Shown: in pieces, positions 22,348-63,184 of the stretch
Position numbering within the stretch: position 1 is the stretch's first letter
How the letters are laid out: each line of letters begins with the position of its first letter
NCBI GenBank assembly: GCA_043822065.1
Contig: JBDRCC010000020.1
Location: 1 to 64,000 of the forward strand
Direction: 5' to 3'
DNA from: an archaeon
GTDB lineage: Archaea; Undinarchaeota; CAZHTU01; JBDRCC01
Length of the DNA: 64,000 nt
Translations under genes and position numbers: made by a program
Notes under the pieces: model-generated
What the model was told of the DNA's origin: nothing
What the model saw: the letters and a program-made list of their open reading frames with translations, nothing else
The model's database searches: none

Positions 22348-22456
22348 TTAGAGCAGAATTACCATCAGGTCGAATATGACCGAGCTCAGCTTTTTGAGAA
22401 AAAGCTGATGCAAAAACCTAAAGCAGGATTACCATCAGGTCGAATATGACCGAGCT
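22348..22456. repeat. Duplicated gene 3' end (39 nt) flanking a REP-like hairpin
   Basis: 22348-22386 vs 22418-22456, 36/39 identical; hairpin tcagcttttt-gag-aaaaagctga then tgcaaaaac. Confidence 0.92.
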
Positions 22457-23035
22457 TATGAAATGCATCAGGAAGCTTGGCAAAATCGAATTTGTCTTCA
22501 GGTCAACCCACCCGAAGGCGTAGCCCGCGAAAAACGAGTATGGCACCTCAAGCCAGGGCTTTCCTATATGGACCAGCATGTACACGAACGAATGGACCAG
22601 GTTCCCCCACCACTTGTCCTTCAGGCTGAACAGCAGGAAGCCCCTGTAAAAGAACTCCGTCGAGAACATTATAACACCAACCAGCGCCTCGAAAGCTATG
22701 AACATCCACCAGCTGTCAAGCGCCCCCTTCCACTCGGGGTAGTACAGCTTGAAGTCCCCAAGCATTGCGCCGTATGCCATTATCGGCATTGCTACCAGAA
22801 GGAGAATTGCGGAATACTTCAGCCCCGTTCTCCAGTCCCCAAGCTGCATCCCATACGCTGGGAGCTTCTTGCCCCACGCATGCAGGACAATCATCGGGAT
22901 TGCCGCAAGGAAAAGGAACGTGTGCGCCGTCCTCATGAACACGCCTGGCGGGCTTGTGAAATAGCTGCACCATGCCAGGACGCCGGCAAGGGCGAGCACC
23001 AGCAACTTGTTGACTTTCTCAATCTTCATGCCCAC
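22418..23035 (-). CDS. CPBP (Abi/CAAX protease-like) intramembrane metalloprotease
   Basis: TEFFYRG, YMLVHIGKP, SILPSFLMH. Confidence 0.85.
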   Translation of the reverse strand: MGMKIEKVNKLLVLALAGVLAWCSYFTSPPGVFMRTAHTFLFLAAIPMIVLHAWGKKLPAYGMQLGDWRTGLKYSAILLLVAMPIMAYGAMLGDFKLYYPEWKGALDSWWMFIAFEALVGVIMFSTEFFYRGFLLFSLKDKWWGNLVHSFVYMLVHIGKPWLEVPYSFFAGYAFGWVDLKTNSILPSFLMHFISSVIFDLMVILL

Positions 23036-23082
23036 GTATAATATCTAAATCTATTTATACTGAAAACTGCAATATTCCCCCC

Positions 23083-23598
23083 ATGCCAGCCCGCACTTTC
23101 ATGGGCAAGTCCCCAAAGTGGGACCAATCCTGCTACATCGACCAAGCGGCAGTCCTGATTGGCGACGTCACCATAGGGAAATCATGCAGCGTCTGGCCTG
23201 GAGCGGTAATCCGCGCCGACGTGAACAAAATCCAGATTGGGGACAACACAAGCGTCCAGGACAACTGCGTCCTGCACGTCTCCGCCGCCAGGGGGATAAA
23301 AATCGGGAGCAATGTCGTCATCGGCCACGGCGCCATAATCCACAGCTGTGAAATCGGAGACAGCTGCGTCATCGGGATGGGCGCTACAATCCTAGAGGGC
23401 GCGAAAATTGGAAGGGGTGCCGTCATCGGGGCGAACTCGCTCGTCCGCGAGGGGCAGGAAATCGGGGAAATGGAGCTCGCAGTCGGTTCGCCCGCAGTTG
23501 TGAAGAAAAAGCTTGCCGACCTTTCCCTAAACAAGCACCTTCTTGGGGAGTACGCACTCCTGGCTGCCAGGCATCGGTCAGAAAACATTAAAAAATAG
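23083..23598 (+). CDS. Gamma-carbonic anhydrase family protein
   Basis: Hexapeptide repeats, IRADVN.I.IG..TSVQDNCVLH, IGHGAIIH. Confidence 0.92.
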   Translation: MPARTFMGKSPKWDQSCYIDQAAVLIGDVTIGKSCSVWPGAVIRADVNKIQIGDNTSVQDNCVLHVSAARGIKIGSNVVIGHGAIIHSCEIGDSCVIGMGATILEGAKIGRGAVIGANSLVREGQEIGEMELAVGSPAVVKKKLADLSLNKHLLGEYALLAARHRSENIKK

Positions 23599-23614
23599 CC
23601 GCCATTCAGCACTT

Positions 23615-23812
23615 ATGAAGCTTATACTCGCCGCAATCCTGCTCTGCCTGCTTGTTATCCCGGCAGCCGCCCAAGTGGAGGAGCCCCAGAAAATTAATGT
23701 GTTCGAGGTAGTAAAGAAGATTATCAATGCCGTTGGCGACTTCATCATGCGCGCCTTTGACCGGGTTTTCAAGTTTAACGAGACTGAAGCAGAACTATCC
23801 GACTGGGAATAG
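23615..23812 (+). CDS. Small secreted protein
   Basis: MKLILAAILLCLLVIPAAA signal then an amphipathic helix. Confidence 0.6.
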   Translation: MKLILAAILLCLLVIPAAAQVEEPQKINVFEVVKKIINAVGDFIMRAFDRVFKFNETEAELSDWE

Positions 23813-23848
23813 TAAATATTTAAATACCCAACTGTCCAATAGTCTTCT

Positions 23849-23992
23849 ATGGCAGAAGAGCACAAACACGAAACGCTCCATGAGGAGACTGGCATTAGCA
23901 AGTACCTCATAATAGCCATAGTCCTTGCGATAGTCGTAATCGCAATATTGCTAATGCCCGCTCACTGGTTCTACTGGCTAACCTACAGGTAA
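23849..23992 (+). CDS. 47 aa single-TM protein, not in the ORF track
   Basis: MAEEHKHETLHEETGISKYLIIAIVLAIVVIAILLMPAHWFYWLTYR*; TATA tttaaata upstream. Confidence 0.6.
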   Translation: MAEEHKHETLHEETGISKYLIIAIVLAIVVIAILLMPAHWFYWLTYR

Positions 23993-24098
23993 GCATCGCT
24001 TTTTGCATAAGCTTCCCGGACGAACTACGTTCGTCTGGACCCAGAAAGCTTCGCTTTTCCGGGTTTTGTAAAAAGCTGTCTGGCTAACCTACAGGCAG
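23974..24098. repeat. 16-nt direct repeat of a gene end flanking a branched palindromic element
   Basis: ctggctaacctacagg at 23974 and 24080; outer stem gctttttgca/tgtaaaaagc; inner hairpins 24016-24038 and 24040-24063. Confidence 0.85.
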
Positions 24099-24416
24099 TT
24101 TTGCTATCTGCAGGACGACGACTGTCCCTACAAGCCAGGCAACATACCCATCAAAAACAGCCAGGTTACCGAGCGAGTACCTGAAAAGCAGGGTGCTAAG
24201 GACCAGGATCACAAGGCTCATAGGCCCGGCAAGCGGCCTGACCCCGCGGTGCATAAGGTAAAGGAACTGCGCGGCTATTGTTACCAGCGCGAACGCGCCA
24301 AGCAGGTACGGGTTTGCCGCCCCGGAAAGCATGCCCCTGAACAAAATCGCCCCCACAATGACCGAAACTATGTTCGCAGGCAGGCACAGCATGAACATAC
24401 CCAGCCTAATCCGCAT
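24084..24416 (-). CDS. Hypothetical 4-TM membrane protein
   Basis: Hydrophobic ORF; TATA (ttataaata on the - strand) upstream. Confidence 0.6.
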   Translation of the reverse strand: MRIRLGMFMLCLPANIVSVIVGAILFRGMLSGAANPYLLGAFALVTIAAQFLYLMHRGVRPLAGPMSLVILVLSTLLFRYSLGNLAVFDGYVAWLVGTVVVLQIAKLPVG

Positions 24417-24450
24417 TAAGTATTTATAATACCTCCGTCTCCTAACGCCC

Positions 24451-24540
24451 ATGGAAGAAAACAAGCAAACCTTCGTCCAGAAGATAAAGGCGAAGCTCAA
24501 ATCGAAGCCAAAGCCAAAGCCGTCCTGCTGCTGCCGCTGA
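24451..24540 (+). CDS. 29 aa Lys-rich peptide ending SCCCR (putative metal-binding)
   Basis: MEENKQTFVQKIKAKLKSKPKPKPSCCCR*; TATA upstream; TGATG coupling to the permease. Confidence 0.6.
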   Translation: MEENKQTFVQKIKAKLKSKPKPKPSCCCR

Positions 24541-25487
24541 TGATTAGCGAATTCAGCAATTGGCTGGTTTACGGATTATTTGGGATTTCAGCCGGCTCAC
24601 CCTCAGGTGCAGCCTTGGAGTTTTTTGTTTCTGACGCAATAAAAATCCTTCTCATGCTCCTTGTTATGATAACCTTGATATCCTACCTCCGGACCTACGT
24701 CTCCGAGGAGCGCATACGCAAGTCGTTCACGGGTAAAAAAGCCGGCGCAGGGAATATTGCAGCCGCATCCTTCGGCGCGCTGACGCCTTTCTGCTCCTGC
24801 TCCTCAATCCCGATATTCCTGAGCTTTGTCGAAATGGGAATCCCGCTCGGCGTGGCATTCTCGTTCTTGATAACCTCTCCCCTGATAAACGAGTACCTTG
24901 CAGTCCTCATGTTCGCCACTTTCGGCCTGAAAGTCACTGCAATCTACATCGCAAGCGGCATGGCGATAGGAATCCTCGGTGGAATCCTCCTTGACCGCCT
25001 TGGCATGGAGAAATACCTCATCCGCGATGTCACCAAGCTCAAGTCGTGCTCCAAGAAAGCCGAGCCTAAGTCCTGGCAGGAGCGGCTTTCCTACTCCCTT
25101 TCCCAGTCAAATGCGATAATCCGGCGGATATTCCCCTACGTCCTCCTTGGGCTTGCAGTCGGCGCCTACCTGCACGCCTACATCCCTGAGGCGACTGTGC
25201 AGTCCCTCATAACTAGGACCGGCATCTTCGCAGTCCCGCTCGCCGTCGCCCTCGGCGTCCCGCTCTACGCCAACTGCGCCGCAATCGTGCCAATCGCCGT
25301 AGTCCTCTTCCAGAAGGGCATCCCCCTCGGCACAGTCCTCGCGTTCATGATGTCGACCGCCGCCCTCAGCCTGCCGGAAGCGGTAATACTCAGCAGGGTT
25401 ATGAAGCCGAGGCTCGTCGCCGTTTTTTTCGCAGTAATAGCGCTTGCAATAATTTTTACAGGCTACCTTTTCAATTTAATAATCTAG
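24540..25487 (+). CDS. DUF318/ArsP family permease
   Basis: TPFCSCSSIP, FLITSPLINE, GVPLY, LSLPE. Confidence 0.9.
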   Translation: MISEFSNWLVYGLFGISAGSPSGAALEFFVSDAIKILLMLLVMITLISYLRTYVSEERIRKSFTGKKAGAGNIAAASFGALTPFCSCSSIPIFLSFVEMGIPLGVAFSFLITSPLINEYLAVLMFATFGLKVTAIYIASGMAIGILGGILLDRLGMEKYLIRDVTKLKSCSKKAEPKSWQERLSYSLSQSNAIIRRIFPYVLLGLAVGAYLHAYIPEATVQSLITRTGIFAVPLAVALGVPLYANCAAIVPIAVVLFQKGIPLGTVLAFMMSTAALSLPEAVILSRVMKPRLVAVFFAVIALAIIFTGYLFNLII

Positions 25488-25556
25488 CCGAACATCAGCA
25501 ACGACCTTCTTTCAAAAGAAGCTCGACCAAGAAACCATTTAGCCGAACATCAGCAA
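25484..25556. repeat. Duplicated gene 3' end (18 nt) flanking a REP-like hairpin
   Basis: 25484-25501 vs 25539-25556, 17/18; hairpin cgaccttcttt-ca-aaagaagctcg then accaagaaac. Confidence 0.88.
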
Positions 25557-26714
25557 TTCTGGCTTAAGTATCAGGACAAATCCGAGCCCCGCAATCATCA
25601 GCCCGCTCACCAGCTTGAGCCACTTGCCCTCTTTCTGCGTGACTTGGTGCTTCGTCATCGTGTAGACCGCAATCGCGAAGATAGCAAGGTCGTCAAGCAT
25701 GTACATCAGGATGTACAGGGCAAAATACAGGTAGTACTCTATCCTCGGCAGCTCGTGCATCGAGATTATCGTTGAATATATCACCGGCAGCCCTGCCGTG
25801 CACAGCAGCTCCACGAAGTTCACGGTGACCGCGACTGCCATCACACCAAGCATCATAGCGGGCGCTATACTCTGCTTGACGAGCTCATTCATCCTGTGGA
25901 CGATCTTCTTCTTCAGGTGGAGCGGTATCGACAGTGAGATGCCCTTGCCGAACCAGAAGAAGTCCTTCAGGTTTATCACTCCAGCAGCTATCGCGCCGAG
26001 CCCGACGACTGCCCTCAGCCAGGGCATGTACTTCAGGTAGCTCACGACATTGAACGCCGCCGCTATGAACATATAATATACAAGCCCGGAGACGAAAATG
26101 AACGTCCCGCCGATTATCATCATCTTTTTCCGGTCCCCGCTCCCTATCAAAAGGGCAATCAGGAATGTCAGCACCCACATCGCGCAGGGGTTGAACCCGT
26201 CGAGCAGGCCTATCACTACCGTGAAAACCGGGAGTGAAAATGCGTCAATCCCCACCCTGCCTAAAAACGGAAGGGTAACCGTGTCTGTCGCCTCGCAGCT
26301 TTCCACTCCGTTCGGCTCGGCAATCTCCAGCGCGTCCCTGCAGCCGTTTTCTATGCACCCGGCAATCTCTGCCTCAATCTCCGCGCTGGATGTCTCATCA
26401 CTGTCATAGCCGACAAAATGTTTCTCGCCAATTATTAGGGTAGGCACCGAGGATGGGTTGAACCCGCAGGTTTCCCCCATCTGCAGGAAAAGCTCCTGGT
26501 TCGGCACGCTCTCAAGGAGTTCGTACCTGTGGACCTCAAGCTCCGGGTATTTTGCCTCCATCGCGTCAAGGAAAACCTGCTCCTTGTGGCAGTGCGGGCA
26601 GCCCTCTGCCCAGAACATGTACGCCTTAGTCTCGTGCCCGCCTGCGGCAAAGCCAAAGCTGCTGAATAGGAGCAATACTAAACAAGCGATGAAAAGCTTT
26701 TTCATGCGAGCCAT
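25539..26714 (-). CDS. Thioredoxin/glutaredoxin fused to a CcdA/DsbD-like membrane domain
   Basis: Signal peptide, GCPHC, SVP; DGFNPCAMW and ELLCTAGLP. Confidence 0.85.
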   Translation of the reverse strand: MARMKKLFIACLVLLLFSSFGFAAGGHETKAYMFWAEGCPHCHKEQVFLDAMEAKYPELEVHRYELLESVPNQELFLQMGETCGFNPSSVPTLIIGEKHFVGYDSDETSSAEIEAEIAGCIENGCRDALEIAEPNGVESCEATDTVTLPFLGRVGIDAFSLPVFTVVIGLLDGFNPCAMWVLTFLIALLIGSGDRKKMMIIGGTFIFVSGLVYYMFIAAAFNVVSYLKYMPWLRAVVGLGAIAAGVINLKDFFWFGKGISLSIPLHLKKKIVHRMNELVKQSIAPAMMLGVMAVAVTVNFVELLCTAGLPVIYSTIISMHELPRIEYYLYFALYILMYMLDDLAIFAIAVYTMTKHQVTQKEGKWLKLVSGLMIAGLGFVLILKPELLMFG

Positions 26715-26764
26715 ATTGTTTATTTCTTTTAATGGTTTTAGTCCCTAGGCAACTAGCTATTTGG

Positions 26765-27052
26765 CTATCCTCCACAGCCTCCTCCGCAGCTGCCAGTGCA
26801 TGACGACCCGCCAGTGCAAGTCGGGCTTCCGCAGCTGCCGCTCCCTGGCGGCCCGCCCGGGTTGCTTGGCTGTGCTTGGACTTCCACTATCCCAGCACCT
26901 CCGCCGCCCGAAGACCCAAAATCTGTGCCCAGTCTGTAGTTGTAATACAGATTCAGCGATCCGGCTGCCATGGCGGCTAAAAGAAGGAGCCCGACAACAA
27001 AAATCAGCAGTTCGTTTCCAAGTAGTTCTTTTATTGCAGTTGTTTTTTTCAT
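26765..27052 (-). CDS. Small TM protein with Gly/Cys-rich tail
   Basis: TM then SGSCGSPTCTGGSSCTGSCGGGCGG; last gene of the ABC operon. Confidence 0.65.
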   Translation of the reverse strand: MKKTTAIKELLGNELLIFVVGLLLLAAMAAGSLNLYYNYRLGTDFGSSGGGGAGIVEVQAQPSNPGGPPGSGSCGSPTCTGGSSCTGSCGGGCGG

Positions 27053-27063
27053 TCCCCCCCCCC

Positions 27064-28308
27064 CTATATCTGCCTCAGAGCCTCCGCAGGATCTATCTTC
27101 GACGCCTTTAGGGCCGGATAAACTGTGGCTGCTGTCCCCACGAGGACCGCTAAAGCTACAGCTGCCACTGCAAGGTACGGGTCAAAGGCACTGGCAATCT
27201 CTACTTCAGCAATCAGGGATCCTGCAATTGATGTGACTATAATGCCTAAGGCATATCCAATTGCTCCGGATACAAGGCTAAGCACCAATGCCTCGGTTAT
27301 GAATATTCTGGCAATGTGCTGCTTTCTGAAGCCAATTGCCCTGAATATCCCAATTTCCCTTGTCCTCTCGTTTACAGAAGCCATCATCGTTGTGAACACC
27401 ATCAGCGAGCCAATTAGGAGTATAATTACCCCAACGGCCATGCCAAAGTTGCTTATCTGCTTTATTGTTTGCATCTTCTGTTCCACAACCTGCTTTATGG
27501 GCGTGGCTTTGCCATCAGGAATTGCCTCGTTTATCTGCCTCGCCATTTCCTCTACTGGGCATCCTGAGCATATAGCTGCAACTTCCACAAGGGTTATCTC
27601 ACCTTCTTTGCCAAGCAGCCGCTGGGCTGTCCGCAGGTTCATGAAAATTATTGAGTCGTCCTGGGAACCCGTTTCCTCGATGACGGCTCTTACATTGAAA
27701 CTCATCTCCCTGCCATTGCTGGAGAGTGTTACCGCATCCCCAGGCTTCTTGTTTAGCTTTTCAGCCACGCCAGACCCTATTAGGATATCTTCCTCTTTCA
27801 AGCCTGCAATTTCAGTCACAGTCACCATTTTAGTTGGGTCTATCGGGCTGGCCTTCTCCACGCGGACCAGCTCTATACCGCTCTCAGGGGTAAACTTCCA
27901 CCATTTCTTTAGCTTAATTTCAGTTGCCAGCTCGGCACCGACTAGCAGTATGGTTTCTCCATCAACATCAACTGCGCCAAGCAGCTTTTCTGACACCGTT
28001 GCAAGATTATTCTTATTTTTAATCTCCCAGATACTGTCTATCCTCTCCTCTTTTATTTGCCGAACGTCATACTGGGCGCCTGGGATTGATATCCCCCCGT
28101 AGGTCATGGACAACGTATTTGCTTTCGGGACAATCATGATGTTTGCCCCGTATTCGTCCAGCTTCTGCTGTACGTCCTGCTGCATTGCCTCAGTAATGGA
28201 GAAAATAGTCACTATGGTCGCTATGCCAATCACCATGCCAAGGACAAGGAAGAGCATCTTCTTCCTCCGCCTTTTTATGTTGTCCATTGCTATGTTTCCG
28301 AGCTTCAT
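27064..28308 (-). CDS. ABC transporter permease (MacB/FtsX family)
   Basis: SVNERTREIGIFRAIG, PALKASKIDPAEALR; CSGC motif. Confidence 0.92.
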   Translation of the reverse strand: MKLGNIAMDNIKRRRKKMLFLVLGMVIGIATIVTIFSITEAMQQDVQQKLDEYGANIMIVPKANTLSMTYGGISIPGAQYDVRQIKEERIDSIWEIKNKNNLATVSEKLLGAVDVDGETILLVGAELATEIKLKKWWKFTPESGIELVRVEKASPIDPTKMVTVTEIAGLKEEDILIGSGVAEKLNKKPGDAVTLSSNGREMSFNVRAVIEETGSQDDSIIFMNLRTAQRLLGKEGEITLVEVAAICSGCPVEEMARQINEAIPDGKATPIKQVVEQKMQTIKQISNFGMAVGVIILLIGSLMVFTTMMASVNERTREIGIFRAIGFRKQHIARIFITEALVLSLVSGAIGYALGIIVTSIAGSLIAEVEIASAFDPYLAVAAVALAVLVGTAATVYPALKASKIDPAEALRQI

Positions 28309-28730
28309 TAGAAGTATTTCCCTCCCAGTTCAATGTCAGCTTTTTTGATTAGCACGTTTCCGCCTATAACTTCTCGGTCCAATGGCGCCGGGTTGCATCC
28401 GCCTTCCTCTATGTTTATCCTCGTGGAGGGAAACCTCCGCCCGCAGTTGTTGCAAACCATATAGTCCCCTTCCTGCCTGTAGCCCTTCTTAGCCTCAAAG
28501 CAGACATCGCAGGCGTCAAACGCCGCCCTGTATACCCCATCACTGGACTTAAGCACAAAAAAGCGGATGGTTTTCCCCCCAGCGCCGTTATAGCTGTAGA
28601 AATGCGCCTTTCCGTCATTGATTTCTGAGATTGGTATCTTTAGGGTCTGGCCCTCCTGCTGGACTTTTTCCCCACTAACACACCCTGCAACAAGAAAAAC
28701 CAAAAGAATAACGAGTCCAGATTTACCCAT
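28308..28730 (-). CDS. DUF2318 membrane iron-sulfur (lipo)protein
   Basis: LVAGC lipobox; FDACDVC, VCNNCG, GGCNP. Confidence 0.88.
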
Positions 28731-55365: not shown

Positions 55366-55500
55366 TTAATTCAGGTCTACGCCGTGTTCCCAGCGACCTT
55401 TTCTTTTTAGAAAAAAGAAAACGTCGATGAAAAGAAAAACTACTTTAGTGTTCGCTCCGCTCACAGATATAATTAGTTCAGGTCTACGCCGTGCTCCCAG
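55366..55500. repeat. Duplicated gene 3' end (28 nt) flanking a REP-like hairpin
   Basis: 55366-55393 vs 55473-55500, 26/28; hairpin cgaccttttcttttt-ag-aaaaaagaaaacgtcg then atgaaaagaaaaac. Confidence 0.92.
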
Positions 55501-56261
55501 TGGTGGTCGAACAGGTCCTGGAGGTTTCTGACAAAGTGCTCTGACTTTATCCAGATCCCATACTCCTGCTCCGCCTGGTCAGGCGACATTATCAGGAGCG
55601 CCTCTTTCCTGTCCTTGAGGAGTATCTTCGTGTTTATGCTGGCCTTCCTTATGCGGCCGTGCTTTGAAATATTCCTTGCATGCTCTGCGTGCTTCGTCTC
55701 TATGTTCCCAAGAACCTTTATCTCGATGCCCTTGGCCTTCGCCTCTTTCAGGTGGTCGACGTGGTTTGCGGCGAGGTTCCTGAGCCCATCGCCCGTGGTG
55801 AACTTGCAAATAGATTTCTCAGCCGAGAGTATCATTTCTTCGCGTTGCCGCCTCATATTATCTGTCCCCTTTATGAAGCCGCTCAGGCTTGCCGGGTCGA
55901 GCGCTGCGCTTGCGGACCGGTATATCGGGGCGAGCGTGTCGACAAACTCCTTCTGGAGCTTTTCAAGCTCGGCAACTCTCTGCTCGAACTCCTCCTGGTA
56001 ATCCGCCTTTATCCGCCTTATGACCTCTTCTGGCTTTGCAGGTATGTACCTTACCGGCCTGTCGTTCTGGACCTTTACGAAGCCTCTTTTCTCCAAGCTG
56101 GACAGGACGTCATACGCCCTGCTCCTCGGGACTCCGGATATGTCAGAGACCTCTCCCGCCGAGGAAACCCCGGTCGAAAGCAGGCCAACATACACCTTTG
56201 ACTCGTACTGGTTAAGCCCAAGCCTCTTCAGTAATGAAAATGTCTTGCCATTGCCTATCAT
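55473..56261 (-). CDS. trmB: TrmB family transcriptional regulator
   Basis: LGLNQYESKVY..LL, SGVPRSRAYDVL.SL..RGF; C-terminal sensor domain. Confidence 0.9.
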   Translation of the reverse strand: MIGNGKTFSLLKRLGLNQYESKVYVGLLSTGVSSAGEVSDISGVPRSRAYDVLSSLEKRGFVKVQNDRPVRYIPAKPEEVIRRIKADYQEEFEQRVAELEKLQKEFVDTLAPIYRSASAALDPASLSGFIKGTDNMRRQREEMILSAEKSICKFTTGDGLRNLAANHVDHLKEAKAKGIEIKVLGNIETKHAEHARNISKHGRIRKASINTKILLKDRKEALLIMSPDQAEQEYGIWIKSEHFVRNLQDLFDHHWEHGVDLN

Positions 56262-56381: not shown

Positions 56382-57239
56382 ATGATAATTGGGGGATCTG
56401 CTTCTCTTGAGCTGGCAAAAAAAATCTCCGCGGAGTCAGGCGAGCCGCTCGCCGCAGTCAAGCACAAAAAATTCCCTGACGGTGAGGTCTATGTCAAGCT
56501 CGAGCAGGGCAAAGTCGGCGAGGACGTCACCATCGTCCAGTCCACGCACTTTCCGCAGTACGAGAACTTTGCCGAACTGCTGTTCCTTGCCGAGATAGCA
56601 AAGCAGTACGGTGCAAAGAGGATACGCGCAGTCGTGCCGTACCTCACGAACGCAATGCAGGACAAGGTCTTCGAGCCTGGCGAGATACTCGCGGTAAGGC
56701 CAATCGCCAGCGCGATGAAAGCCGTTGGCATAGAAAAAATACTCACCGTCGACTGCCACTTCTACAGGAAGGAGGGGCCCTTTGACGCCTTCGGCATTCC
56801 GGCCTACAACATCGGCGCCGCCCCGCTCCTGCTAGACCACGTCTCAAAGAAGTTCAAGGACTTAGTCATCGTCACTCCAGACGCCGGCTCCGCAGAGCAG
56901 GCAAAGCAGGTCGGGGGGCAGAACATGAAGAAGAAGCGCATTTCTTCCTTCGAGGTTGAGATCGAGGGGCTGCCAGACGTCTCAGGAAAGAACGTCCTGA
57001 TAATCGACGACCTGATAGAGACCGGCGGCACAGTCCGAAAAGCCATTGACAATGTCAAGAAAGCCGGTGCGGCCAAGGTCGCTGTCGCCGCAACCCATGC
57101 AGCCTTCTGCTGCCAGGCATACGATAAGATAAAGCCGATGGCAGACTACGTCGTAACGTCCGACACAATCCCGCACGAAACATCCAAAGTGACAGTCGCA
57201 AAAAAAATTGCCGACACAATGAGATTAGGAAAATGGTAA
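56382..57239 (+). CDS. prs: Ribose-phosphate pyrophosphokinase
   Basis: FPDGE, QDKVF.PGE, PDAG, IIDDLIETGGT. Confidence 0.93.
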   Translation: MIIGGSASLELAKKISAESGEPLAAVKHKKFPDGEVYVKLEQGKVGEDVTIVQSTHFPQYENFAELLFLAEIAKQYGAKRIRAVVPYLTNAMQDKVFEPGEILAVRPIASAMKAVGIEKILTVDCHFYRKEGPFDAFGIPAYNIGAAPLLLDHVSKKFKDLVIVTPDAGSAEQAKQVGGQNMKKKRISSFEVEIEGLPDVSGKNVLIIDDLIETGGTVRKAIDNVKKAGAAKVAVAATHAAFCCQAYDKIKPMADYVVTSDTIPHETSKVTVAKKIADTMRLGKW

Positions 57240-57919
57240 GCCAGAAAAAATTAGAAACCGAATCCAAAAAGCAGAACGAGAAGCTCAAGCAGATGGCAGG
57301 TACAGCGGCCGCACGCTACGTCGACGGCGGGATGGTCGTCGGGCTTGGCACGGGCTCAACCGTGAAATACACAATCCAGGAAATTGGAAGGCTGAAGCTC
57401 AAAATCCTCGGCGTCCCGACGTCTAAGGCGACCGAGCGCCTCGCAAGGACGTGCGGCATCCGGCTCACCAGCCCGAACAAGGTCGACAGCATTGACGTCA
57501 CCATAGACGGTGCCGACGAGATTGACGCTGAAATGAACCTCATCAAAGGCGGCGGAGGCGCGCTGACAAGGGAAAAGATTGTCGCCTCAATGAGCAAGCT
57601 CTACGTTGTTGTCGCCGACGAGTCAAAGGTCGTACAGACCCTTGGCAAATTTCCCCTTCCGATTGAAGTCTTAGAATTCGCAAAAAGGAATGTCTCCCGG
57701 ACGCTCCTAAAGTTTGGTGCGACTTCTGTCACCGAGCGCAAAGGGAAAACCGACAACGGCAACATCATCCTCGACGCCAAGTTCCCAGCAATACTGAACC
57801 CGCTCAAGCTCGAGAAAGATTTAAATAATCTGCCCGGCGTAATTGAGAATGGGATATTCCCGAAGCGGTACGTCAACTACGTCGTCATCGGGACAAAGAA
57901 AGGCGTAAAAACAGCATAA
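57233..57919 (+). CDS. rpiA: Ribose-5-phosphate isomerase A
   Basis: GLGTGST, DGADE, KGGGGALTREK, TDNGN. Confidence 0.96.
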   Translation: MVSQKKLETESKKQNEKLKQMAGTAAARYVDGGMVVGLGTGSTVKYTIQEIGRLKLKILGVPTSKATERLARTCGIRLTSPNKVDSIDVTIDGADEIDAEMNLIKGGGGALTREKIVASMSKLYVVVADESKVVQTLGKFPLPIEVLEFAKRNVSRTLLKFGATSVTERKGKTDNGNIILDAKFPAILNPLKLEKDLNNLPGVIENGIFPKRYVNYVVIGTKKGVKTA

Positions 57920-58224
57920 TGCCAAGGACAATAAACTACGAGGAAAAGAAATTCAGGGCGAGGCAAAAAGGCCTCGGCCACATCGGCAAGGCAAGGGAGC
58001 GCGTCTGCCCGTTCTGGATTACCGCCGCAGTCGAGGAGGTCTACCGCCCGGAGCCGCGGGCAGTTTTTGTCACCCACTGCATGGCGACGGGACGGATGAT
58101 CTGCCCGCGCGACCCATACCACTACGAGACCTGCGAGTACTACCAGAAGTTCAGGCGCTCAAAGGACGAGAATGTCGACAGGACAACGACAATGCCGAGG
58201 TTCCCTGTCCCAAGCCCGGACTAA
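57919..58224 (+). CDS. Hypothetical Cys-containing protein
   Basis: TAATG coupling to rpiA; CPFW...HC...IC...CEYY. Confidence 0.7.
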   Translation: MPRTINYEEKKFRARQKGLGHIGKARERVCPFWITAAVEEVYRPEPRAVFVTHCMATGRMICPRDPYHYETCEYYQKFRRSKDENVDRTTTMPRFPVPSPD

Positions 58225-58256
58225 ACTATTTATAACTCAAAGTTCAAACACATTCC

Positions 58257-59525
58257 ATGAATGAAATTAGAGACTATCTCGGCCAGATACGTGCCGACGC
58301 CTTTCTAGCTTACGTCTCGCGCGAAACCCACGGTACCATAACGCAAGACATTCTGGGCGTCCCGCCCGATGCAATGACCTCAAGGGAACACTTCGCCTTT
58401 ATCTATACAGACAAGAAAAAAGTAGACTTCTTCGCCTCAAAAATCGACGAGGCTCACGTATCTGATCTTAAACACGACATCACCTTTTACTACAGCTACA
58501 GGAACAAGTACAAGCTCCTTGAAGACAAGCTCAAAGATCTCAACACCATACTGCTCGACTACTCCTTCCAGCATCCTGAGGAAGTGAAAACCCTGAAGAT
58601 GGATCCTTCAAGGTACATCAAGAAGGGTCCCGTCATTCCAGCCCTGGAGTTCGTAGATCTGCTAAAAAAGAGGGACGCTCAAATCGTTAATCAGCTGGTA
58701 CCCAAGATTGCGTTCATCTCAGACACCGGATATCTAAGCCACACCTATGCAGCAGAAAAGCTTACCGGAATCGTCTTGGACGCCTTTGAGCTAATCCGGA
58801 AAGAAGCTGGAAAAATAAGGGAGGGCGATGTGTGCAAGTTCATATACGACGAAATTAGAAAGAAAGGGATGGCGATGGAAAATCTTCCCTACGAAAAAGG
58901 GGAACAGATCCCTAATTCCAGCCCCATAGTCTCCGTCAATGAAAATGCAAGCAATGTCCACTACAAGGCTAAATTCGGCAAGGGGGCGAAAATCAAGGAA
59001 GGAGATCTCGTCCTAATAGACCTCTGGGCGAGGACACGCAGCCACTCCCCGGTTTTCGCTGACATAACCTGGATGGGCTACGTCGGTGAGGAAGTACCTA
59101 AAAAACTTGAGGATATATTCCAAACAGTCATCCAGGCAAGGGACGCAGCTGTCAGCCGGCTAATGGAGAACTATCCTGGAAAAATAACTGGCCAGGAGCT
59201 TGACAGAGTCGCCCTTGATGTCCTTGGAGGTGCTGGCTACAAGGAAGAAGCAATCATTAGCAGGCTGGGGCATGCTATGGACATTCAGGATCATGGTAAA
59301 GGAGTAAATCTTGACGACTTTGAGATCCCAGACGCAAGGGAGCTCAAGCCAAGGCTCCTCTTTACAATAGAACCTGGCCTCTACCTCCCGAAGTACGGCT
59401 TCAGAAGCGAAATAGATATCTTCCTGCACCACAACCGAGCCGAAATAACCACAATGCCCTACCAGACAAAGGTAATCCCGCTTCTCGCACCTAGGTCGTC
59501 CTGGAGCTCCTGCTGGAAAGAATAA
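58257..59525 (+). CDS. M24 family (Xaa-Pro) aminopeptidase
   Basis: NVHY, LIDLWA, ADITW, LGH, FTIEPGLY, GFRSE. Confidence 0.88.
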   Translation: MNEIRDYLGQIRADAFLAYVSRETHGTITQDILGVPPDAMTSREHFAFIYTDKKKVDFFASKIDEAHVSDLKHDITFYYSYRNKYKLLEDKLKDLNTILLDYSFQHPEEVKTLKMDPSRYIKKGPVIPALEFVDLLKKRDAQIVNQLVPKIAFISDTGYLSHTYAAEKLTGIVLDAFELIRKEAGKIREGDVCKFIYDEIRKKGMAMENLPYEKGEQIPNSSPIVSVNENASNVHYKAKFGKGAKIKEGDLVLIDLWARTRSHSPVFADITWMGYVGEEVPKKLEDIFQTVIQARDAAVSRLMENYPGKITGQELDRVALDVLGGAGYKEEAIISRLGHAMDIQDHGKGVNLDDFEIPDARELKPRLLFTIEPGLYLPKYGFRSEIDIFLHHNRAEITTMPYQTKVIPLLAPRSSWSSCWKE

Positions 59526-59556
59526 AAAGTTTATATCTCCTTCGCGATAAGTCTAT

Positions 59557-59664
59557 ATGGCTTTCGTTGGTAGAACTCGATATCTAGAACTCTTGGTGGG
59601 GCTTGTTGATAACATCGAGCTAGGCATGACCCTGCCAAGGTTCCCGGTGCCGAGCCCGGACTAA
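59557..59664 (+). pseudogene. 35 aa chimeric ORF: truncated gene start fused to the displaced gene end
   Basis: MAFVGRTRYLELLVGLVDNIELGM + TLPRFPVPSPD*; own TATA (tttatatc) upstream. Confidence 0.5.
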
Positions 59665-59697
59665 GCATTATATACTAAAATAGCTCATTAACAGGAT

Positions 59698-60744
59698 ATG
59701 GCGGCTTCACCAAAGCAGTTTATATCTCAGATAGAATCCAACAAGGAATACCTACGAATTGCGAAGATAGTTGTCGAAAGAACACTTGCTCTCAAGACAA
59801 CCGAGACGATTTCAATTTTTGCCGACAACGCAGCCGGTAAAATCGGTGCGGCAGTCTTCCTTGTTGCCGAAGGCATTGCAAAACAGGCGAACTTCAGGAT
59901 AATTGAGCACAGCTACGGCAAAAGGCCGATAATTGGGATCCCTACGGAAATTAAAGAGCTTACAGAGGCAAGCGATGTCGTAGTCTACGTCCTAGGCGAC
60001 CAGTACGGCGAAGAGCGCGCCGAAAACGGGATCCGGGCTTATTGGATGTTCGAATGGGCTCTCACTAAAAAGTTGGGCAGGTGCACCGGGATGCCTGGTA
60101 TCACTGAGCAGATGTTCCTTAATCTAGTCGACATAGACTACCAAAAATTAAAGGGGCGGGCGACCAAGATAGCAAAGCTCATCGCGGGGAGATACATACA
60201 CATTATTACCCCAGCCGGAACAGACCTAATATTTAGCCTCTTGAAAGCGGACGGCACCCCATGTGAGACAGACCCGGATATAGGCGAGAACCACGAGAAA
60301 GGCAAGCCTGGCGTCGCAAACATCCCCTGCGGGGAAATCTGCTATATGTATGAAATGAACACTAACCACTGCCACGGGACTGTAGTAATTGACGGTGCCA
60401 TCGGGGACTTTGGCCTTGTCGACCAGCCGCTAAGCTTTGATGTCTACAAGGGGAGGATACTCTTAGACACCATCAAAGGCGGCAAAGCTGCACAATACCT
60501 GAAGAATGAGATAAAGCGCTCCAAGGACGGCGAAGGCGCAGTCTTCAGCGAGCTGGGCATCGGCCTGAACGAAAAGGCAAAACTGCACCCCAACCTGAAC
60601 TGCCTTGAGGCGGAGAAGATATGGGGCACGGTCCACGTCGCATTTGGGCGCAAGGTGCACAACGACTGCGTCCTCAAAAACCCCAAGGTCATCGCACTTA
60701 AGCCGGAGACCGTAAAGGAGCAGAAGGAAAGCTGGAAAATCTGA
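59698..60744 (+). CDS. M29-like (aminopeptidase T) metallopeptidase
   Basis: MPGIT, AGTDL, NIPCGE, SELGIGLN, EAEK..GTVHVAFG, HND. Confidence 0.85.
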   Translation: MAASPKQFISQIESNKEYLRIAKIVVERTLALKTTETISIFADNAAGKIGAAVFLVAEGIAKQANFRIIEHSYGKRPIIGIPTEIKELTEASDVVVYVLGDQYGEERAENGIRAYWMFEWALTKKLGRCTGMPGITEQMFLNLVDIDYQKLKGRATKIAKLIAGRYIHIITPAGTDLIFSLLKADGTPCETDPDIGENHEKGKPGVANIPCGEICYMYEMNTNHCHGTVVIDGAIGDFGLVDQPLSFDVYKGRILLDTIKGGKAAQYLKNEIKRSKDGEGAVFSELGIGLNEKAKLHPNLNCLEAEKIWGTVHVAFGRKVHNDCVLKNPKVIALKPETVKEQKESWKI

Positions 60745-60832
60745 GCAATCCCCGAAGCATCTCGTTTTAGCTCAGATTTCGCAGTGCAGAAACCGCAGTT
60801 TTTATATATGCCACTAGCAAATAGTATCTCTA

Positions 60833-61912
60833 ATGGGGAGCTTGCAACAGGGCGCATATAACGCAGTCAAAGTCTGCATGGGCGTCAAGAGGGGCGAAAG
60901 AGTCACAATAATAACTGACGACTCTGCAATGCAGATTGCAACCGCCCTCAGAACAGAAGCGGAGAAACTTAAAGCAAAGGTTTCTTTCTTCAACCTCGAT
61001 GATTTTGAGAACCGGAGGGCGAGCAAGAAAAACCTCCTTAAGAAGGCGCCGAAGGAAGTCCTCGAAGCCATAGAGGACTCGGACATCACTTTCTACAATG
61101 CCGCGGACAAGCAGTTTGGCTCGAATACCGAGGTCCAGGCTAGAATCAAGATATGGGAGCACGCCATACAATATGCCCGGCACGCCCACATGCCCGGAGT
61201 AAGTGTTAAGATGATGGAAACCGGCATGTGCGTCGACTACAAGAAAGTTCACAAAATTACGCACAAAGTCTACGGCGAGTTCCTGAAGGATGCAAAAAGC
61301 ATGCACATAGCATCCAGGGCAGGAACAGACTTAGCCATCATGTTCGGGCCGACAAACAAGTACCCAGATGCCAGATGGCGCGCCTGCGGCGGGCTTTACC
61401 ACAAGAAAGGCGAGAGCGGAAACCTCCCGGAGGGCGAGGTATTCACCTGCCCGATTCGTGTCAATGGCGACCTTGTCTTCGACGGCTGCATCGGGGAGTT
61501 GTCCAAGGACGACCTTGAGGAGACAAACCAGGTAATAAGCATGAAGGTGGTGGACAGCTTTTGTGAGCGGGACAGCATAAACTGCCGCAACAAGGACCTC
61601 GAGTCGGCTTACAGGAACTACCTTTCCAAGCATCAGAATTCTTACCGAGTTGGCGAGATAGGCGTCGGGACCAATGTACTTTTGAGGAAATACGGCTTCG
61701 TCGGGCACATGCTCCAGGACGAGAAATACCCGGGCATCCACATTGCCTTCGGGGAGTCAAGCCCTGACGACACCGGCATCAGCTGGGAGAAGGAAGGCGG
61801 CGACCCGCCGACGCACATAGACGGCTTCATAAAACACGCCACGCTTGATGTCACGGACAAGGACGGAACGACAAAGCGGCTCCTCAAGAACGGAAAATTC
61901 GTTTTCGAGTGA
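60833..61912 (+). CDS. M29 (aminopeptidase T) metallopeptidase
   Basis: HMPGV, AGTDL, NLPEGE, GEIGVGTN, QDEKYPGIHIAFG, HID. Confidence 0.9.
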   Translation: MGSLQQGAYNAVKVCMGVKRGERVTIITDDSAMQIATALRTEAEKLKAKVSFFNLDDFENRRASKKNLLKKAPKEVLEAIEDSDITFYNAADKQFGSNTEVQARIKIWEHAIQYARHAHMPGVSVKMMETGMCVDYKKVHKITHKVYGEFLKDAKSMHIASRAGTDLAIMFGPTNKYPDARWRACGGLYHKKGESGNLPEGEVFTCPIRVNGDLVFDGCIGELSKDDLEETNQVISMKVVDSFCERDSINCRNKDLESAYRNYLSKHQNSYRVGEIGVGTNVLLRKYGFVGHMLQDEKYPGIHIAFGESSPDDTGISWEKEGGDPPTHIDGFIKHATLDVTDKDGTTKRLLKNGKFVFE

Positions 61913-63184
61913 TTATTTCTTGCCCCAGCCTCGCTAATCCCTACCTACTTGCTTATTACCCACTTGCCTTTCAGGTTAATGCCGGAGGTGCCTTGCAGTA
62001 TCAGTTTGTCACCGATATAAATCGCGGGATTGTACATGAGGTAGTCACAGTGCGTCTTAGAGCCAAATCCCAAGTGGCATGTCCCAACTGCCTTCTCTGC
62101 CTCTAGCAGGGTCGTACCCTTGTAGATACTAGCATTTGGATTAGTGCCTATGCCAACTTCGAATAGGACGCCCCTGTCATTAGGCTCTCCTGCAACAAAC
62201 TCCTTCATCCACTCCGTCGCGTCATCCCTTGCGGGGTCAACCGCCTCTATGGTCCCTTCGAGTATACGCCCGCTCTGGACCTCAAACCTAATCGGTCCAT
62301 CCAATATCCCGCCAGTTTCCTCTTCCTTATACATCCCACTCAAGCCGTCAATAACAACAACGCCGCTGGCTTGCATGTAATCGACAGGCTCCCAGAAAGT
62401 TTCGCCGCCTGGCAAATTCCTCATGTTCTTCACTTTGGTAATATCTCCATTGCTTAAGTCCACTTTACTCTTCCCGCCAAAGAGCCTTATTTTCTTTCCG
62501 GTCACCAGGCTTACCTTGATGTCGGTGCCAGCAGGAGTCCTTATGCGGACATTTTCCTTGTCATTCAATAAGTCCCGTATCGTTTCACAATTTTTTTGTA
62601 TTTCTTTGTAATCTATATCTATCAATGTCGTATACATCTTCTCAGTTATGCCTGGCATCGGGACGCACCGGGTGGCATCTTCTTCCTTTAAGTGCCGCGG
62701 ATACTTCTTGCGGGTATCATCAAAGTTCTTGGATAGCAGCAGCGCCCACACCTGCCTGACTTCCCCCTTCACTATGTCCTCCCCGCCGCTTATCCCATAG
62801 ATGACAATGTCCGCAGATTTGCACTCGTCAATTAAGCGGTCCCCTGGCTTAACTGGGCTCTTCGGGTCGTCAAGGGATAGCGGAACTTTTTTTCCGTAGA
62901 ATGCTGCTGTGCGGTAGCCCTTTTTTATTTCTATGTCGCCGCCATCCACCACGGTTAGGTAAACGTGGCCGCTAATCTTGCGTGCCTCTTCATAAAGGCT
63001 GATAAACATGCTCCTGTGCGCCTTATCCGTGAAAATTAGCAGCTTTTCGTCCTTTCTAAGGCCTATTGCTTCCTTTACAATCCTTGAGCTTGCGCTTTTC
63101 AGGCTTGCCATCTGCGTTGTCTTAAATGTTTTGTATCCTGCGGTATATAACTCTTTGTGTCGCTTACGCTATTTCTTGCCCCAG
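61913..63184 (-). repeat. Duplicated topA 3' end (16 nt) flanking the third M29 gene
   Basis: ttatttcttgccccag (61913-61928) vs ctatttcttgccccag (63169-63184): WGKK-TAA vs WGKK-TAG. Confidence 0.8.
61945..63111 (-). CDS. M29-like (aminopeptidase T) metallopeptidase
   Basis: MPGIT, AGTDI, NLPGGE, FEVGIGTN, EAEK..GTCHLGFG, HCD. Confidence 0.85.
   Translation of the reverse strand: MASLKSASSRIVKEAIGLRKDEKLLIFTDKAHRSMFISLYEEARKISGHVYLTVVDGGDIEIKKGYRTAAFYGKKVPLSLDDPKSPVKPGDRLIDECKSADIVIYGISGGEDIVKGEVRQVWALLLSKNFDDTRKKYPRHLKEEDATRCVPMPGITEKMYTTLIDIDYKEIQKNCETIRDLLNDKENVRIRTPAGTDIKVSLVTGKKIRLFGGKSKVDLSNGDITKVKNMRNLPGGETFWEPVDYMQASGVVVIDGLSGMYKEEETGGILDGPIRFEVQSGRILEGTIEAVDPARDDATEWMKEFVAGEPNDRGVLFEVGIGTNPNASIYKGTTLLEAEKAVGTCHLGFGSKTHCDYLMYNPAIYIGDKLILQGTSGINLKGKWVISK

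Follow-up and report, generated by a model that had tools for sequence, protein, structure and literature searches.

Introduction

What might allow foreign DNA to settle in the genomes of DPANN-type archaea, which are so tiny and densely packed that nearly any insertion would disrupt a gene? Tyrosine integrases usually leave direct repeats over the 3' end of a tRNA or protein gene, and the element-borne copy restores the gene. In fungal mitochondria, a mobile-element-linked duplication of the C-terminal coding end is known from atp6 of Allomyces and involves a homing endonuclease gene. Homology-facilitated illegitimate recombination, according to the accounts drawn on here, has been shown in Acinetobacter, Streptococcus pneumoniae and Pseudomonas stutzeri (PMC5361080, PMC2884548), and is orders of magnitude rarer than ordinary recombination (PMC5361080). 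C-terminal displacement occurs at Rhs, CDI and T6SS effector loci (PMC5361080, citing Jackson 2009), where the displaced ends, as presented in that source, are different toxin domains with immunity genes and measure hundreds of bases. REP/REPIN and MITE repeats, as portrayed in the material cited, are short, non-coding extragenic palindromes with many copies and possible terminator activity (PMC3184786, PMC3337134, PMC10969869).

Here we describe a window, the whole 64,000-nt stretch of archaeal DNA that was analysed, in which the last codons of genes recur on the far side of an insert. Like homology-facilitated illegitimate recombination, so far as those accounts describe it, the arrangement would combine one homologous anchor with one non-homologous joint and place foreign DNA beside a conserved gene. 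Unlike in those accounts, the events would be recurrent (~20 loci per Mb), tiny in scale and deduced from sequence alone, the second joint would lie at a stem-loop, and the outcome is a 12-41 nt duplication, not a deletion. For the archaeal host, we know of no uptake or end-joining system. As at the Rhs, CDI and T6SS loci, a new 3' end would come in and the old one be orphaned downstream, here at 13 coding loci, whereas the displaced end, in contrast to those in the source, specifies the same peptide, is 4-13 codons long and belongs to ordinary housekeeping genes and tRNAs. The genes affected include a PdxS neighbour and genes for a CAAX protease, TrmB and a topoisomerase, with no toxin domain or immunity pattern. 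As in Allomyces atp6, the insert would bring a foreign gene 3' end and leave the resident one as a downstream pseudo-end, but no homing endonuclease gene is seen here.

Results

The first-pass annotation had reported six pairs of repeated gene ends, each surrounding an insert; all are present as described, its coordinates being correct to within 1-4 nt (Table 1). Its count of 14 silent mismatches among 15 is about right, since 9 of the 10 differing sense codons in the window are synonymous and three stop codons have been switched. The repeats of site 1 are 39 nt long with three mismatches counting the stop, and those of site 5 have six mismatches. At sites 1, 2, 3 and 6 the distal copy abuts or overlaps the stop of the convergent neighbour, as had been claimed: the dead copy begins directly after the stop of the PdxS gene (21496-22347) at site 1 and of gene 60833-61912 at site 6, and at site 3 it overlaps the stop of an ArsP-type permease gene (24540-25487) by 4 nt. 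The distal copy of site 4 lies 20 nt beyond the neighbour's stop. On the + strand the second copy of site 2 forms the last codons of a small ORF (23851-23993), and thus both copies are in use; the insert between them has no further copy anywhere in the genome. Sites 6 and 2 are the weakest by score (13 and 12, respectively), but gain support from the placement of their copies exactly against the neighbour's stop. Foreign DNA is indicated by the lower GC content of the inserts at sites 5 and 6 relative to 0.53-0.55, and by the lack of the inserts in the reconstructed empty site.

Table 1. Positions of the live gene ends, inserts and dead copies at the six sites
Site	Feature	Position	Strand	Remarks
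1	Live 3' end of CAAX-protease-like gene 22418-23035	22418..22456	-	13 codons including stop TAG
1	Insert: hairpin element, subfamily b	22387..22417	-	T-run, then 9-bp A/T-rich stem
1	Dead copy of the same 13 codons	22348..22386	-	2 silent changes, stop TAA
2	Copy with live end (P V G stop) of gene 24084-24500	24080..24095	-	
2	Insert, 90 nt	23990..24079	-	Strongly folding (z = -3.1 and -4.2)
2	Second repeat copy	23974..23989	-	16/16 identical
3	Live end (L L M F G stop TAA) of gene 25539-26714	25539..25556	-	
3	Insert: hairpin element, subfamily a	25502..25538	-	
3	Dead copy	25484..25501	-	Stop TAG the sole difference
4	Live end of TrmB-family regulator gene 55473-56261	55473..55500	-	
4	Insert: hairpin element, long form	55394..55472	-	5' module, T-run, 14-bp stem
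4	Dead copy	55366..55393	-	2 silent changes (2 mismatches)
5	Live end of 101-aa gene 57919-58224	58188..58224	+	
5	Insert: M24 peptidase gene 58257-59525 plus ~100 nt	58225..59627	+	GC 0.477, flanks 0.53-0.55
5	Dead copy	59628..59664	+	5 silent and 1 conservative change in 11 codons, stop unchanged
6	Live end (W G K K stop TAG) of topoisomerase I gene running off the window	63169..63184	-	
6	Insert: M29-like aminopeptidase gene 61945-63111	61929..63168	-	GC 0.487
6	Dead copy	61913..61928	-	Stop TAA the sole difference

The host genome is a DPANN-type archaeal bin of 1.03 Mb, compact at ~90% coding and 82% complete. A stop-anchored scan, in which the last 45 nt of each of 994 genes were compared with the 3 kb downstream and a score of at least 12 was taken as a hit, found the last codons and stop repeated downstream in 14 genes. 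Codon-shuffled tails, the control by which the pattern could be told from chance, gave 0/994, reverse-complemented downstream DNA likewise 0/994, and internal windows 3/994. Elsewhere, a 0.94-Mb sample of unrelated metagenome loci already yielded four hits at a score of at least 14, spread over three loci. The duplications are real and extend past the window; besides gene 3' ends they involve tRNA 3' ends, tRNA 5' ends and gene starts, and at C22 19615-19716 a unique insert has the same topology as site 2. Slippage does produce short direct repeats, and a local tandem duplication or chance match followed by neutral decay could be imagined, but the scan controls, the lack of the insert in the reconstructed empty site and the codon differences described below refute it.

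The inserts at sites 1, 3 and 4 belong to one dispersed element, in which an A/T-rich hairpin comes after a T-run. The 1.03 Mb contain 22-26 copies of it, mostly intergenic, and 15-17 have flanking direct repeats of 12-41 nt. Among 26 A/T-run hairpins, 17 have flanking repeats scoring at least 14, a level unmatched by 300 random positions, which reach 13 at most; by nhmmer there are 22 copies, 15 with repeats, 14 of which begin within 12 nt of the hairpin. Seven copies are of the long form, and near-identical copies occur at unrelated loci (e.g. C2 24018 and C8 15613). The element is asymmetric, with one T-run end and one hairpin end. In the short forms the T-run lies 0-9 nt past the live stop, and on each strand the stem's 5' arm contains a second T-run; with an oligo-T run directly downstream of the gene, the element would appear to be archaeal terminator-like. 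The element also occurs in another family of the same order, and the same tRNA-Pro 5' end has been hit independently in both families. Non-coding repeats may be identical or nearly so (21/21 at C13, 45/46 in L173).

How do the live and dead copies differ? Across the 13 coding loci compared, 24 of 104 sense codons differ, 19 of them synonymously, amounting to 8.7% of bases, with changes at codon positions 1, 2 and 3 numbering 3, 4 and 20; one differing codon is a double change between Arg CGA and AGG. Random change would leave 23% of the differing codons synonymous and constraint on the live copy only would leave 38% (P = 4.5e-5), which agrees with the suggestion that both copies were once under coding selection. 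In the same time, a neutrally decaying dead copy should have gathered ~28 replacement-type changes; the observed number is 5-7 (P = 2e-6). There is no over-dispersion among the 13 loci (p = 0.39), and by manual reading eight of the nine long coding repeats have unlike copies.

The annotation had pointed to related strains as the source of the DNA, and a second lineage, ~7% away in coding sequence and with a like pattern of differences, is indeed present in the same assembly, as seen from five homeologous contig-end overlaps of 91-98% identity. In these, 149 of 747 codons differ, 102 of them synonymously (68%), and the divergence of 7.2% is indistinguishable from the 8.7% between repeat copies (Fisher p = 0.36 and 0.35). 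These data support the conclusion that the copies differ like two functional alleles of related lineages. With a mixed bin, overlapping contig ends and a repeat divergence that equals the inter-strain divergence, an assembly artefact has to be weighed, in which a real strain has an identical-copy duplication or none and the contig crosses, within the structure, from one co-assembled strain to the other. This is very improbable. Among the contig ends there are five overlaps of exactly 141 nt, from which a final word size of 141 would follow, and 17 of 18 structures span no more than that; the variants sit at 4-13 nt from the hairpin and at 1-11 nt from the other element end (e.g. C19 15730-15836), close enough to be tied to the element at small word sizes too. 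Moreover, two strains that both lack a junction of hairpin and gene end cannot create one, and similar structures were found in four independent assemblies.

The structures are polar. By manual reading, 21 of 22 assignable loci have the live copy on the T-run side, with the dead copy set against the hairpin (p = 1e-5). As the proposed hairpin-directed second joint would predict, the short inserts have a stem-loop whose end is 0-10 nt away from the dead copy. At 14 of 16 loci the likeness stops no more than 3 nt from the stop codon or RNA end, where 2.5 such loci would be expected for a boundary free to fall anywhere within the repeat (0 of 2,000,000 simulations). At one tRNA 5' end, the two copies match at 15/15 positions of the tRNA part and at 13/18 of the leader part. 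The spacer between live copy and element carries the signals that the live copy needs, an in-register stop in 13 of 13 cases, a GGAGG- or GAGG-type ribosome site upstream of both live gene starts, and CCA after each of the two live tRNA 3' ends; nowhere else in the genome is there a source for this stretch, which separates the live copy from the element consensus.

No recombinase or transposase had been noticed in the window, and the same picture emerged genome-wide: none of the transposase, integrase, reverse transcriptase and Cas1 families searched was found, although in a genome 82% complete absence is unproven. PF01797 (RAYT/Y1) was not found in the genome, while control genomes gave matches, and PF07282, PF01609, PF00665 and PF00239 have no match. 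Ku was not found in the genome search. The sole tyrosine recombinase is a XerA equivalog (258.9 bits, cut-off 220).

These searches bear on several known types of element. As in integrative elements, the repeats cover a gene 3' end and the gene ends in element-borne, possibly silently differing codons. The repeats could accordingly be the attL/attR of former site-specific integrative elements that brought a copy of the 3' end, with the short hairpins as deletion remnants, and sites 5 and 6 and loci L024 and L087 do resemble single-gene islets between repeats of 16-40 nt. That origin is nevertheless very improbable: XerA is the only candidate enzyme of the right class, ~20 different, unrelated repeat sequences flank the same 35-80 nt element family, inserts are as short as 31 nt, the targets include tRNA 5' ends and gene starts, and random deletion would not yield an element of uniform size with a hairpin always flush with one repeat. 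REP/REPIN repeats, as depicted in the sources cited above, are likewise short non-coding palindromes in many copies, but here no RAYT/Y1 or other transposase was found, and the duplications are long, variable and confined to one functional unit. A MITE was rejected because terminal inverted repeats at both ends are lacking, the duplications are 12-41 nt and not of a fixed short length, and no parent insertion sequence or transposase was found in the 82%-complete genome. Casposon or Cas1-type integration makes duplications of 14-15 bp, unlike the 12-41 nt repeats here, and PF01867 (Cas1) was not found in the genome. With SINE-like target-primed reverse transcription the structures have only the variable repeat length in common; PF00078 (reverse transcriptase) was not found in the genome, and the A/T run is internal, 0-29 unique bases from the repeat.

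Discussion

The pattern points to an unusual, gene-preserving route of DNA exchange. The reading we favour, with a probability of roughly 0.45, is that related lineages exchange DNA by one-sided homologous import, the second joint being made at the hairpin. DNA of a relative would recombine with the chromosome through homology on one side only, within a gene or tRNA, and the incoming strand, or repair synthesis off it, would continue past the gene end into donor intergenic DNA, usually the T-run and hairpin element, sometimes a unique structured spacer or a whole gene. The imported tract would terminate at the stem-loop and be rejoined to recipient DNA, at a point between a few and 41 nt upstream of the native gene end, giving the order live end (donor allele), insert, dead end (recipient allele) and intact neighbour. 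Longer duplications would be lost by ordinary recombination between the repeats, or the event would finish cleanly. What can be observed directly in the assembled sequence is the topology, the polarity, the place of the hairpin beside the dead copy, the differences of the kind seen between alleles, and a second lineage whose distance matches; we infer the recombination route because no donor or empty allele was found, and the donor, the order of events and all the enzymology, including stalling versus cleavage at the hairpin and the joining step, are likewise read from their outcome.

In favour of import, the unique inserts (site 2, C22 19615-19716) and the lower-GC genes at sites 5 and 6 share the topology of the element loci. 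Against it, lineages ~93% alike should share gene order, and clean double crossovers should far outnumber one-sided events; given the rarity of one-sided events and a duplication at 15-17 of 22-26 elements, import needs hairpins that regularly end incoming DNA. For the tRNA 5' loci the promoter is found ahead of the dead copy, so that the donor layout would not be the natural promoter-leader-tRNA, which also counts against import, as does a joining step without Ku. Near-identical elements at unrelated loci and the repeated tRNA-Pro hits look like transposition, and the identical non-coding repeats fit an insertion-made duplication as well as a very close donor.

An insertion-made duplication is possible because most element copies carry a duplication. 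On such an account, which we consider unlikely if still a serious competitor, a non-autonomous mobile hairpin element is moved by a trans-acting enzyme with a 12-46 nt target duplication. The copies would be identical at birth, and later inter-lineage exchange would make them unlike when the element-free sister lineage replaces one of them, for example through a heteroduplex with the element as a repaired loop. An element family that is dispersed, divided into subfamilies and present as near-identical copies in unrelated places, duplication at most copies, independent insertions at one tRNA, the known identical non-coding repeats, a sister lineage on hand for the later exchange, and the same family with flanking repeats in G001, where five of nine pattern matches have repeats of 12 or more, and in two other archaeal bins would all be expected. 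What it lacks is an enzyme, since no transposase, reverse transcriptase, Cas1 or integrase beyond XerA was found in the 82%-complete genome, and the repeat lengths vary too much for a classical transposase. Extra assumptions are needed for likeness that stops at functional boundaries (14/16) and for a live copy on the T-run side (21/22), eight of nine long coding repeats must have been split later exactly at the element, and the unique and whole-gene inserts of the same topology are left uncovered.

Under one-sided import, the elements could in turn be viewed as transposase-less, selfish 'terminator cassettes' that spread between related genomes on conserved gene and tRNA ends, a doubtful proposal. 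Gene homology would give one joint, the cassette's own hairpin would stop or cut the incoming strand and give the other, and the host's former gene end would stay as a scar; whole genes could be gained likewise in compact genomes. The interpretation in the annotation is supported in part, by the allele-like differences, the related lineage, the stem-loop beside the dead copy and the lower-GC genes, and had missed the element family and the tRNA and gene-start targets.

The structures show repeatable entry of terminator-like hairpins and whole genes without breaking anything, and each dead gene end is a dated scar of its event that records the earlier allele. If one-sided recombination is true, the scars are a direct, countable record of exchange between co-existing uncultured archaeal lineages and an example of DNA that spreads without a dedicated enzyme. 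If instead a mobile element is responsible, its target duplication is unusually long, variable and polar, and its enzyme is yet to be found. Under either reading the pattern is readily scannable.

Results

How far does the duplication of gene ends around inserts reach beyond the window? All six window sites stand as the first-pass annotation had them: the last 4-13 codons of a gene with its stop codon, an insert, and then a second copy of the same gene end. The genome-wide check that it called for bears the pattern out. When the last 45 nt of each gene, anchored at the stop codon, were compared with the 3 kb downstream, 14 of 994 genes in the whole Undinarchaeota bin (GCA_043822065.1, here G000) reached the threshold score of at least 12, against 0/994 for codon-shuffled tails, 0/994 for reverse-complemented downstream DNA and 3/994 for internal windows. 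In 80 unrelated metagenome loci (0.94 Mb) with 1269 long ORFs, the same scan yielded four matches of at least 14, and none with shuffled tails; the four represent three loci, two overlapping ORFs of metagenome locus L073 sharing one place. The controls and the metagenome scan together indicate that the pattern is found elsewhere too, but is several-fold denser in G000.

The three metagenome loci differ in what they carry. On L073, a 72% GC contig, a 36-nt gene end is repeated at ~19.7 kb around a 44-nt insert with a GC-rich hairpin, with one replacement and a stop switched between TGA and TAG; this unrelated organism of high GC has the same topology. On L024 (~12.8 kb) and L087 (minus strand, ~1.1 kb), inserts of 742 and 1578 nt each hold a single gene and are bounded by direct repeats of 39-40 nt, which contain the final codons and stop of the upstream gene; the two repeats are identical in one case and show a TGA/TAA switch in the other. 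In G000, only two whole-gene inserts with gene-end duplication were seen, both in the window at 57919-63184, 3.7 kb apart, with aminopeptidase-type products and GC below that of their flanks.

Inserts, duplicated features and homeologous contig ends in G000 (contigs C1-C22; the window is the first 64 kb of C20) and related loci
Feature	Location	Size or content
Site 1 insert	window	31 nt
Site 2 insert	window	90 nt; unique sequence, strongly folded
Site 3 insert	window	37 nt
Site 4 insert	window	79 nt
Site 5 insert	window	1.4 kb; M24 peptidase gene
Site 6 insert	window	1.24 kb; M29-like peptidase gene
tRNA 3' ends covered by repeats	C1 28.6 kb; C1 37.5 kb	
tRNA 5' ends	C7 20.6 kb; C8 15.6 kb; C8 18.4 kb; two in G001	first 15-20 bases and 0-18 leader bases
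Gene starts duplicated	C2 24.0 kb; C15 9.6 kb; L205	
Intergenic repeat	C13 28.6 kb	one spacer between divergent genes
Homeologous contig-end overlap	C5 9353-10197 / C9	
Homeologous contig-end overlap	C19 46119-46783 / C3	
Homeologous contig-end overlap	C22 77722-78188 / C4	
Homeologous contig-end overlap	C10 1-351 / C11	
Homeologous contig-end overlap	C18 11546-11893 / C22	

Sites 1, 3 and 4 and seven more gene-end loci each have a copy of a single dispersed element as their insert. In the orientation of the gene whose end is duplicated, it consists of 0-29 unique bases, a T-run and an imperfect palindrome whose 5' arm is also T-rich, so that there is a T-run on both strands. It falls into several subfamilies, including a long form with an extra 5' module (seven copies, all within G000). 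Copies were detected by nhmmer and by patterns. The nhmmer census counted 22, of which 15 have repeats of at least 12, and 14 of these repeats begin within 12 nt of the hairpin; a structure scan found 26 hairpins in G000, 17 with flanking direct repeats scoring at least 14, where the top score over 300 random positions was 13. Folding is modest yet above that of shuffles (z -1.6 to -3.4), and RNAalifold predicted zero pairs on a MAFFT alignment of 23 copies because the loops are out of register. The family extends to G001, a genome of the same order but a different family (9 pattern matches versus 0 for a control pattern; 5 with flanking repeats of at least 12), to the same-phylum genome G013, and to two further archaeal bins, L173 and L205. 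Almost all matches to the 17-letter pattern are due to chance, a hairpin being present in 3 of 151, and in 0 of 31 viral pattern matches. An insert on C22 resembles that of site 2 in being strongly folded; a second repeat family made up of the two was rejected, each sequence being unique. No target motif is evident at the T-run joint among the non-coding cases. Copying of the unique T-run-end bases, which lie beside the live copy, from another element locus was likewise rejected, as they have no source or match elsewhere in the genome.

Duplication is not confined to gene ends, but also covers tRNA ends, gene starts and a spacer, and at every locus the neighbours on both sides are intact. The repeat that runs on into the rest of the gene or tRNA is here called the live copy, and the orphan repeat beyond the insert the dead copy. 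At C3 23.0 kb the dead copy contains the next gene's ribosome site and stop/start overlap, and at site 2 two convergent genes are each served by a different copy. With polarity, boundary and spacer classes assigned by eye, the T-run faces the live copy and the hairpin adjoins the dead copy at 21 of 22 assignable loci (p = 1e-5; 15/16 within G000, the sole exception being C2 24.0 kb). By the same assignment, likeness of the copies ends no more than 3 nt from a stop codon, RNA end or start codon at 14 of 16 G000 loci; about 2.5 would be expected if it ended anywhere within the repeat, and 14 was reached in 0 of 2,000,000 simulations. Spacers also carry useful signals: all 13 live gene ends have an in-register stop, both live starts that face the T-run have a GGAGG- or GAGG-type ribosome site in front, and a CCA absent from the dead copies follows each of the two live tRNA 3' ends.

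The CCA in both live copies prompted the idea that they came from mature tRNA through an RNA intermediate. It was dropped: CCA is encoded by 11 of the 32 tRNA genes of G000, and a third tRNA with an element, at C20 72.1 kb, has no CCA. An antisense reading frame preserving the dead copies was rejected too, since it holds only at C18 11.2 kb. At that locus (C18 11195-11283) a convergent neighbouring ORF (11201-11830, minus strand) extends across dead copy and hairpin to a stop within the element, and the duplication seems to have pulled apart two overlapping convergent genes.

Differences between the copies were counted by codon at 13 coding loci, C21 37002-37101 being added by coordinates; C20 7526-8200, whose copy is not stop-anchored, and C8 24734-25096, which matches the tail of a neighbouring paralogous gene, were left out. 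Differences are mostly silent, as had been noted for the window, and not random in codon position: of 104 sense codons 24 differ, 19 of them synonymously, with 3, 4 and 20 changes at positions 1, 2 and 3. One differing codon is an Arg CGA/AGG double change, and the stop codon differs at 8/13 loci. Random substitution would give a synonymous share of 23%, and constraint on the live copy with free decay of the dead one would give 38% (P = 4.5e-5). Decay of the dead copy over half the synonymous distance would leave ~28 replacement-type changes, against an observed 5-7 (P = 2e-6). In the coding repeats of G001 and L205 all six differences (6/6) are silent as well, and the tRNA 5' repeat at C8 18.4 kb is identical at 15/15 bases within the tRNA and at 13/18 within the leader. 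The synonymous excess and the few replacement changes indicate that the dead copies are much younger than their divergence, and the codon patterns point to two functional alleles as the probable source of the two copies.

Stop codons are unevenly distributed between the copies. Dead copies at the 13 coding loci (including sites 1, 4, 5 and 6) end in TAA in 10 cases, compared with 34% TAA genome-wide (p = 0.002); the live copies have TAG 6, TGA 3 and TAA 4.

Contig ends of G000 share either an exact stretch of 141 nt (five overlaps), which suggests 141 as the final word size of the assembly, or a homeologous stretch of 348-845 nt with 91-98% identity (five overlaps). These overlaps mean that two or more lineages, ~7% divergent in coding sequence, were assembled together in this bin, with breaks where their sequences part. 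Of 747 codons in the homeologous stretches 149 differ, 102 synonymously (68%), with 28, 20 and 114 changes at positions 1, 2 and 3 and a coding divergence of 7.2%. The repeat copies are 8.7% different and 79% synonymous, with 74% of changes at third positions, and both figures are indistinguishable from those of the contig ends (Fisher p = 0.36 and 0.35). All 13 coding loci are compatible with one divergence level (p = 0.39), and 8 of 9 coding repeats with at least 23 sense bases differ, which is the prediction of a fixed ~8% distance and not of spread insertion ages. It is highly improbable that the copy differences are an artefact of mixed strains in the assembly: 17 of 18 structures span no more than 141 nt, and the variant bases, 4-13 nt from the hairpin and 1-11 nt from the element's other end, are near enough to stay linked with the element at small word sizes too. 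Two strains without a hairpin-to-gene-end junction cannot yield one on assembly, and the same structures occur in four independent assemblies.

G000 comprises 1,026,769 bases in 22 contigs (GC 0.50-0.55) and is rated 82% complete; by our own ORF calling, 1046 genes take up 90% of its DNA. TTTATA-type boxes precede genes at the window loci read, the 93-nt length of two tRNA calls is suggestive of introns, and the sole tyrosine recombinase is the archaeal XerA equivalog; these features suggest an archaeon. Within its phylum, G000 is probably of the DPANN type. Among species representatives, which include 17 genomes of its phylum, G000 is the only member of its family. A metagenome scan with a 391-aa protein gave no sister alleles, the closest relatives being merely 46-49% identical, and a PdxS synteny search among relatives gave nothing usable, G001 having no match.

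Discussion

The gene-end duplications are real, statistically solid and genome-wide, and they extend to other archaeal bins. What might explain them? We tentatively favor one-sided homologous import with the second joint at the hairpin, essentially the idea of the first-pass annotation, and give it a probability of about 45%. One-sided import accounts for the polarity, for the uniform allele-level divergence and for the same topology in unique inserts and whole low-GC genes. Likeness would end at functional boundaries because homology of diverged alleles fades there, and the spacer bases with useful signals would be the donor's own intergenic DNA. However, lineages that are 93% alike should mostly swap by clean double crossover, yet most element copies carry the duplication; import would then need the hairpin to end the incoming DNA regularly, by stalled synthesis or by being cut. 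Near-identical element copies at unrelated loci and independent insertions at the same tRNA-Pro in two families also look like transposition. These points would be handled if the element itself made a long target duplication and exchange between lineages came later. We regard this as rather unlikely: polarity, the boundary rule, spacer signals and the non-repeat inserts would each need a separate explanation, and there is no candidate enzyme. Searches of G000 for Y1 transposase, TnpB, DDE_Tnp_1, rve, resolvase, reverse transcriptase, Cas1 and Ku, all of which matched in control genomes, gave no match, and the one tyrosine recombinase is XerA; in a genome 82% complete this is absence of evidence only. 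Recombination between related lineages is required whether duplication comes by import or from the element.

The topology matches that of homology-facilitated illegitimate recombination and of C-terminal displacement at Rhs and T6SS loci (PMC5361080, PMC2884548); the G000 structures differ from both in scale, frequency, role of the hairpin, identity of the displaced peptide and organism. In its size and where it sits, the element is like REP or MITE repeats, but it lacks their terminal inverted repeats and fixed short duplication, and no cognate transposase was found. A limited literature search found no description of archaeal hairpin elements with long gene-end duplications, which does not prove that none exists. 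The gene-end duplications could be viewed as belonging with known recombination and small-repeat phenomena, as a new form of them.

In L173, a Candidatus Micrarchaeota archaeon bin, a copy of the same element at ~4.2 kb (minus strand) is flanked by a 46-nt repeat with one mismatch, in which a tRNA 3' end contributes 12 nt and non-coding DNA with an older small hairpin the other 34 nt; here the duplication extends well beyond the functional boundary. Native tRNA promoters in G000 have an AAAGAAA-type purine run and then a TTTAAA-type box, ~30-38 nt upstream (C7 2267-2350; C22 48.77 kb; C21 59.6 kb). In reverse, the element's T-run reads as this purine run, and the one at tRNA-Glu (C7) stands exactly at that position; the element might act as a terminator one way and supply half of a promoter the other way. 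Two other kinds of repeat were seen in G000. A repeat of 440-730 nt with a conserved GC-rich 10-bp hairpin has three copies at 73-87% identity (C1 63.4-63.9 kb, C3 16.8-17.6 kb, C6 74.7-75.5 kb), and large ORFs at C17 60.8-62.3, C7 142.6-143.4 and C6 30.0-32.5 kb contain internal tandem repeats of ~240-560 nt at 67-75% identity and probably encode repeat-domain surface proteins.
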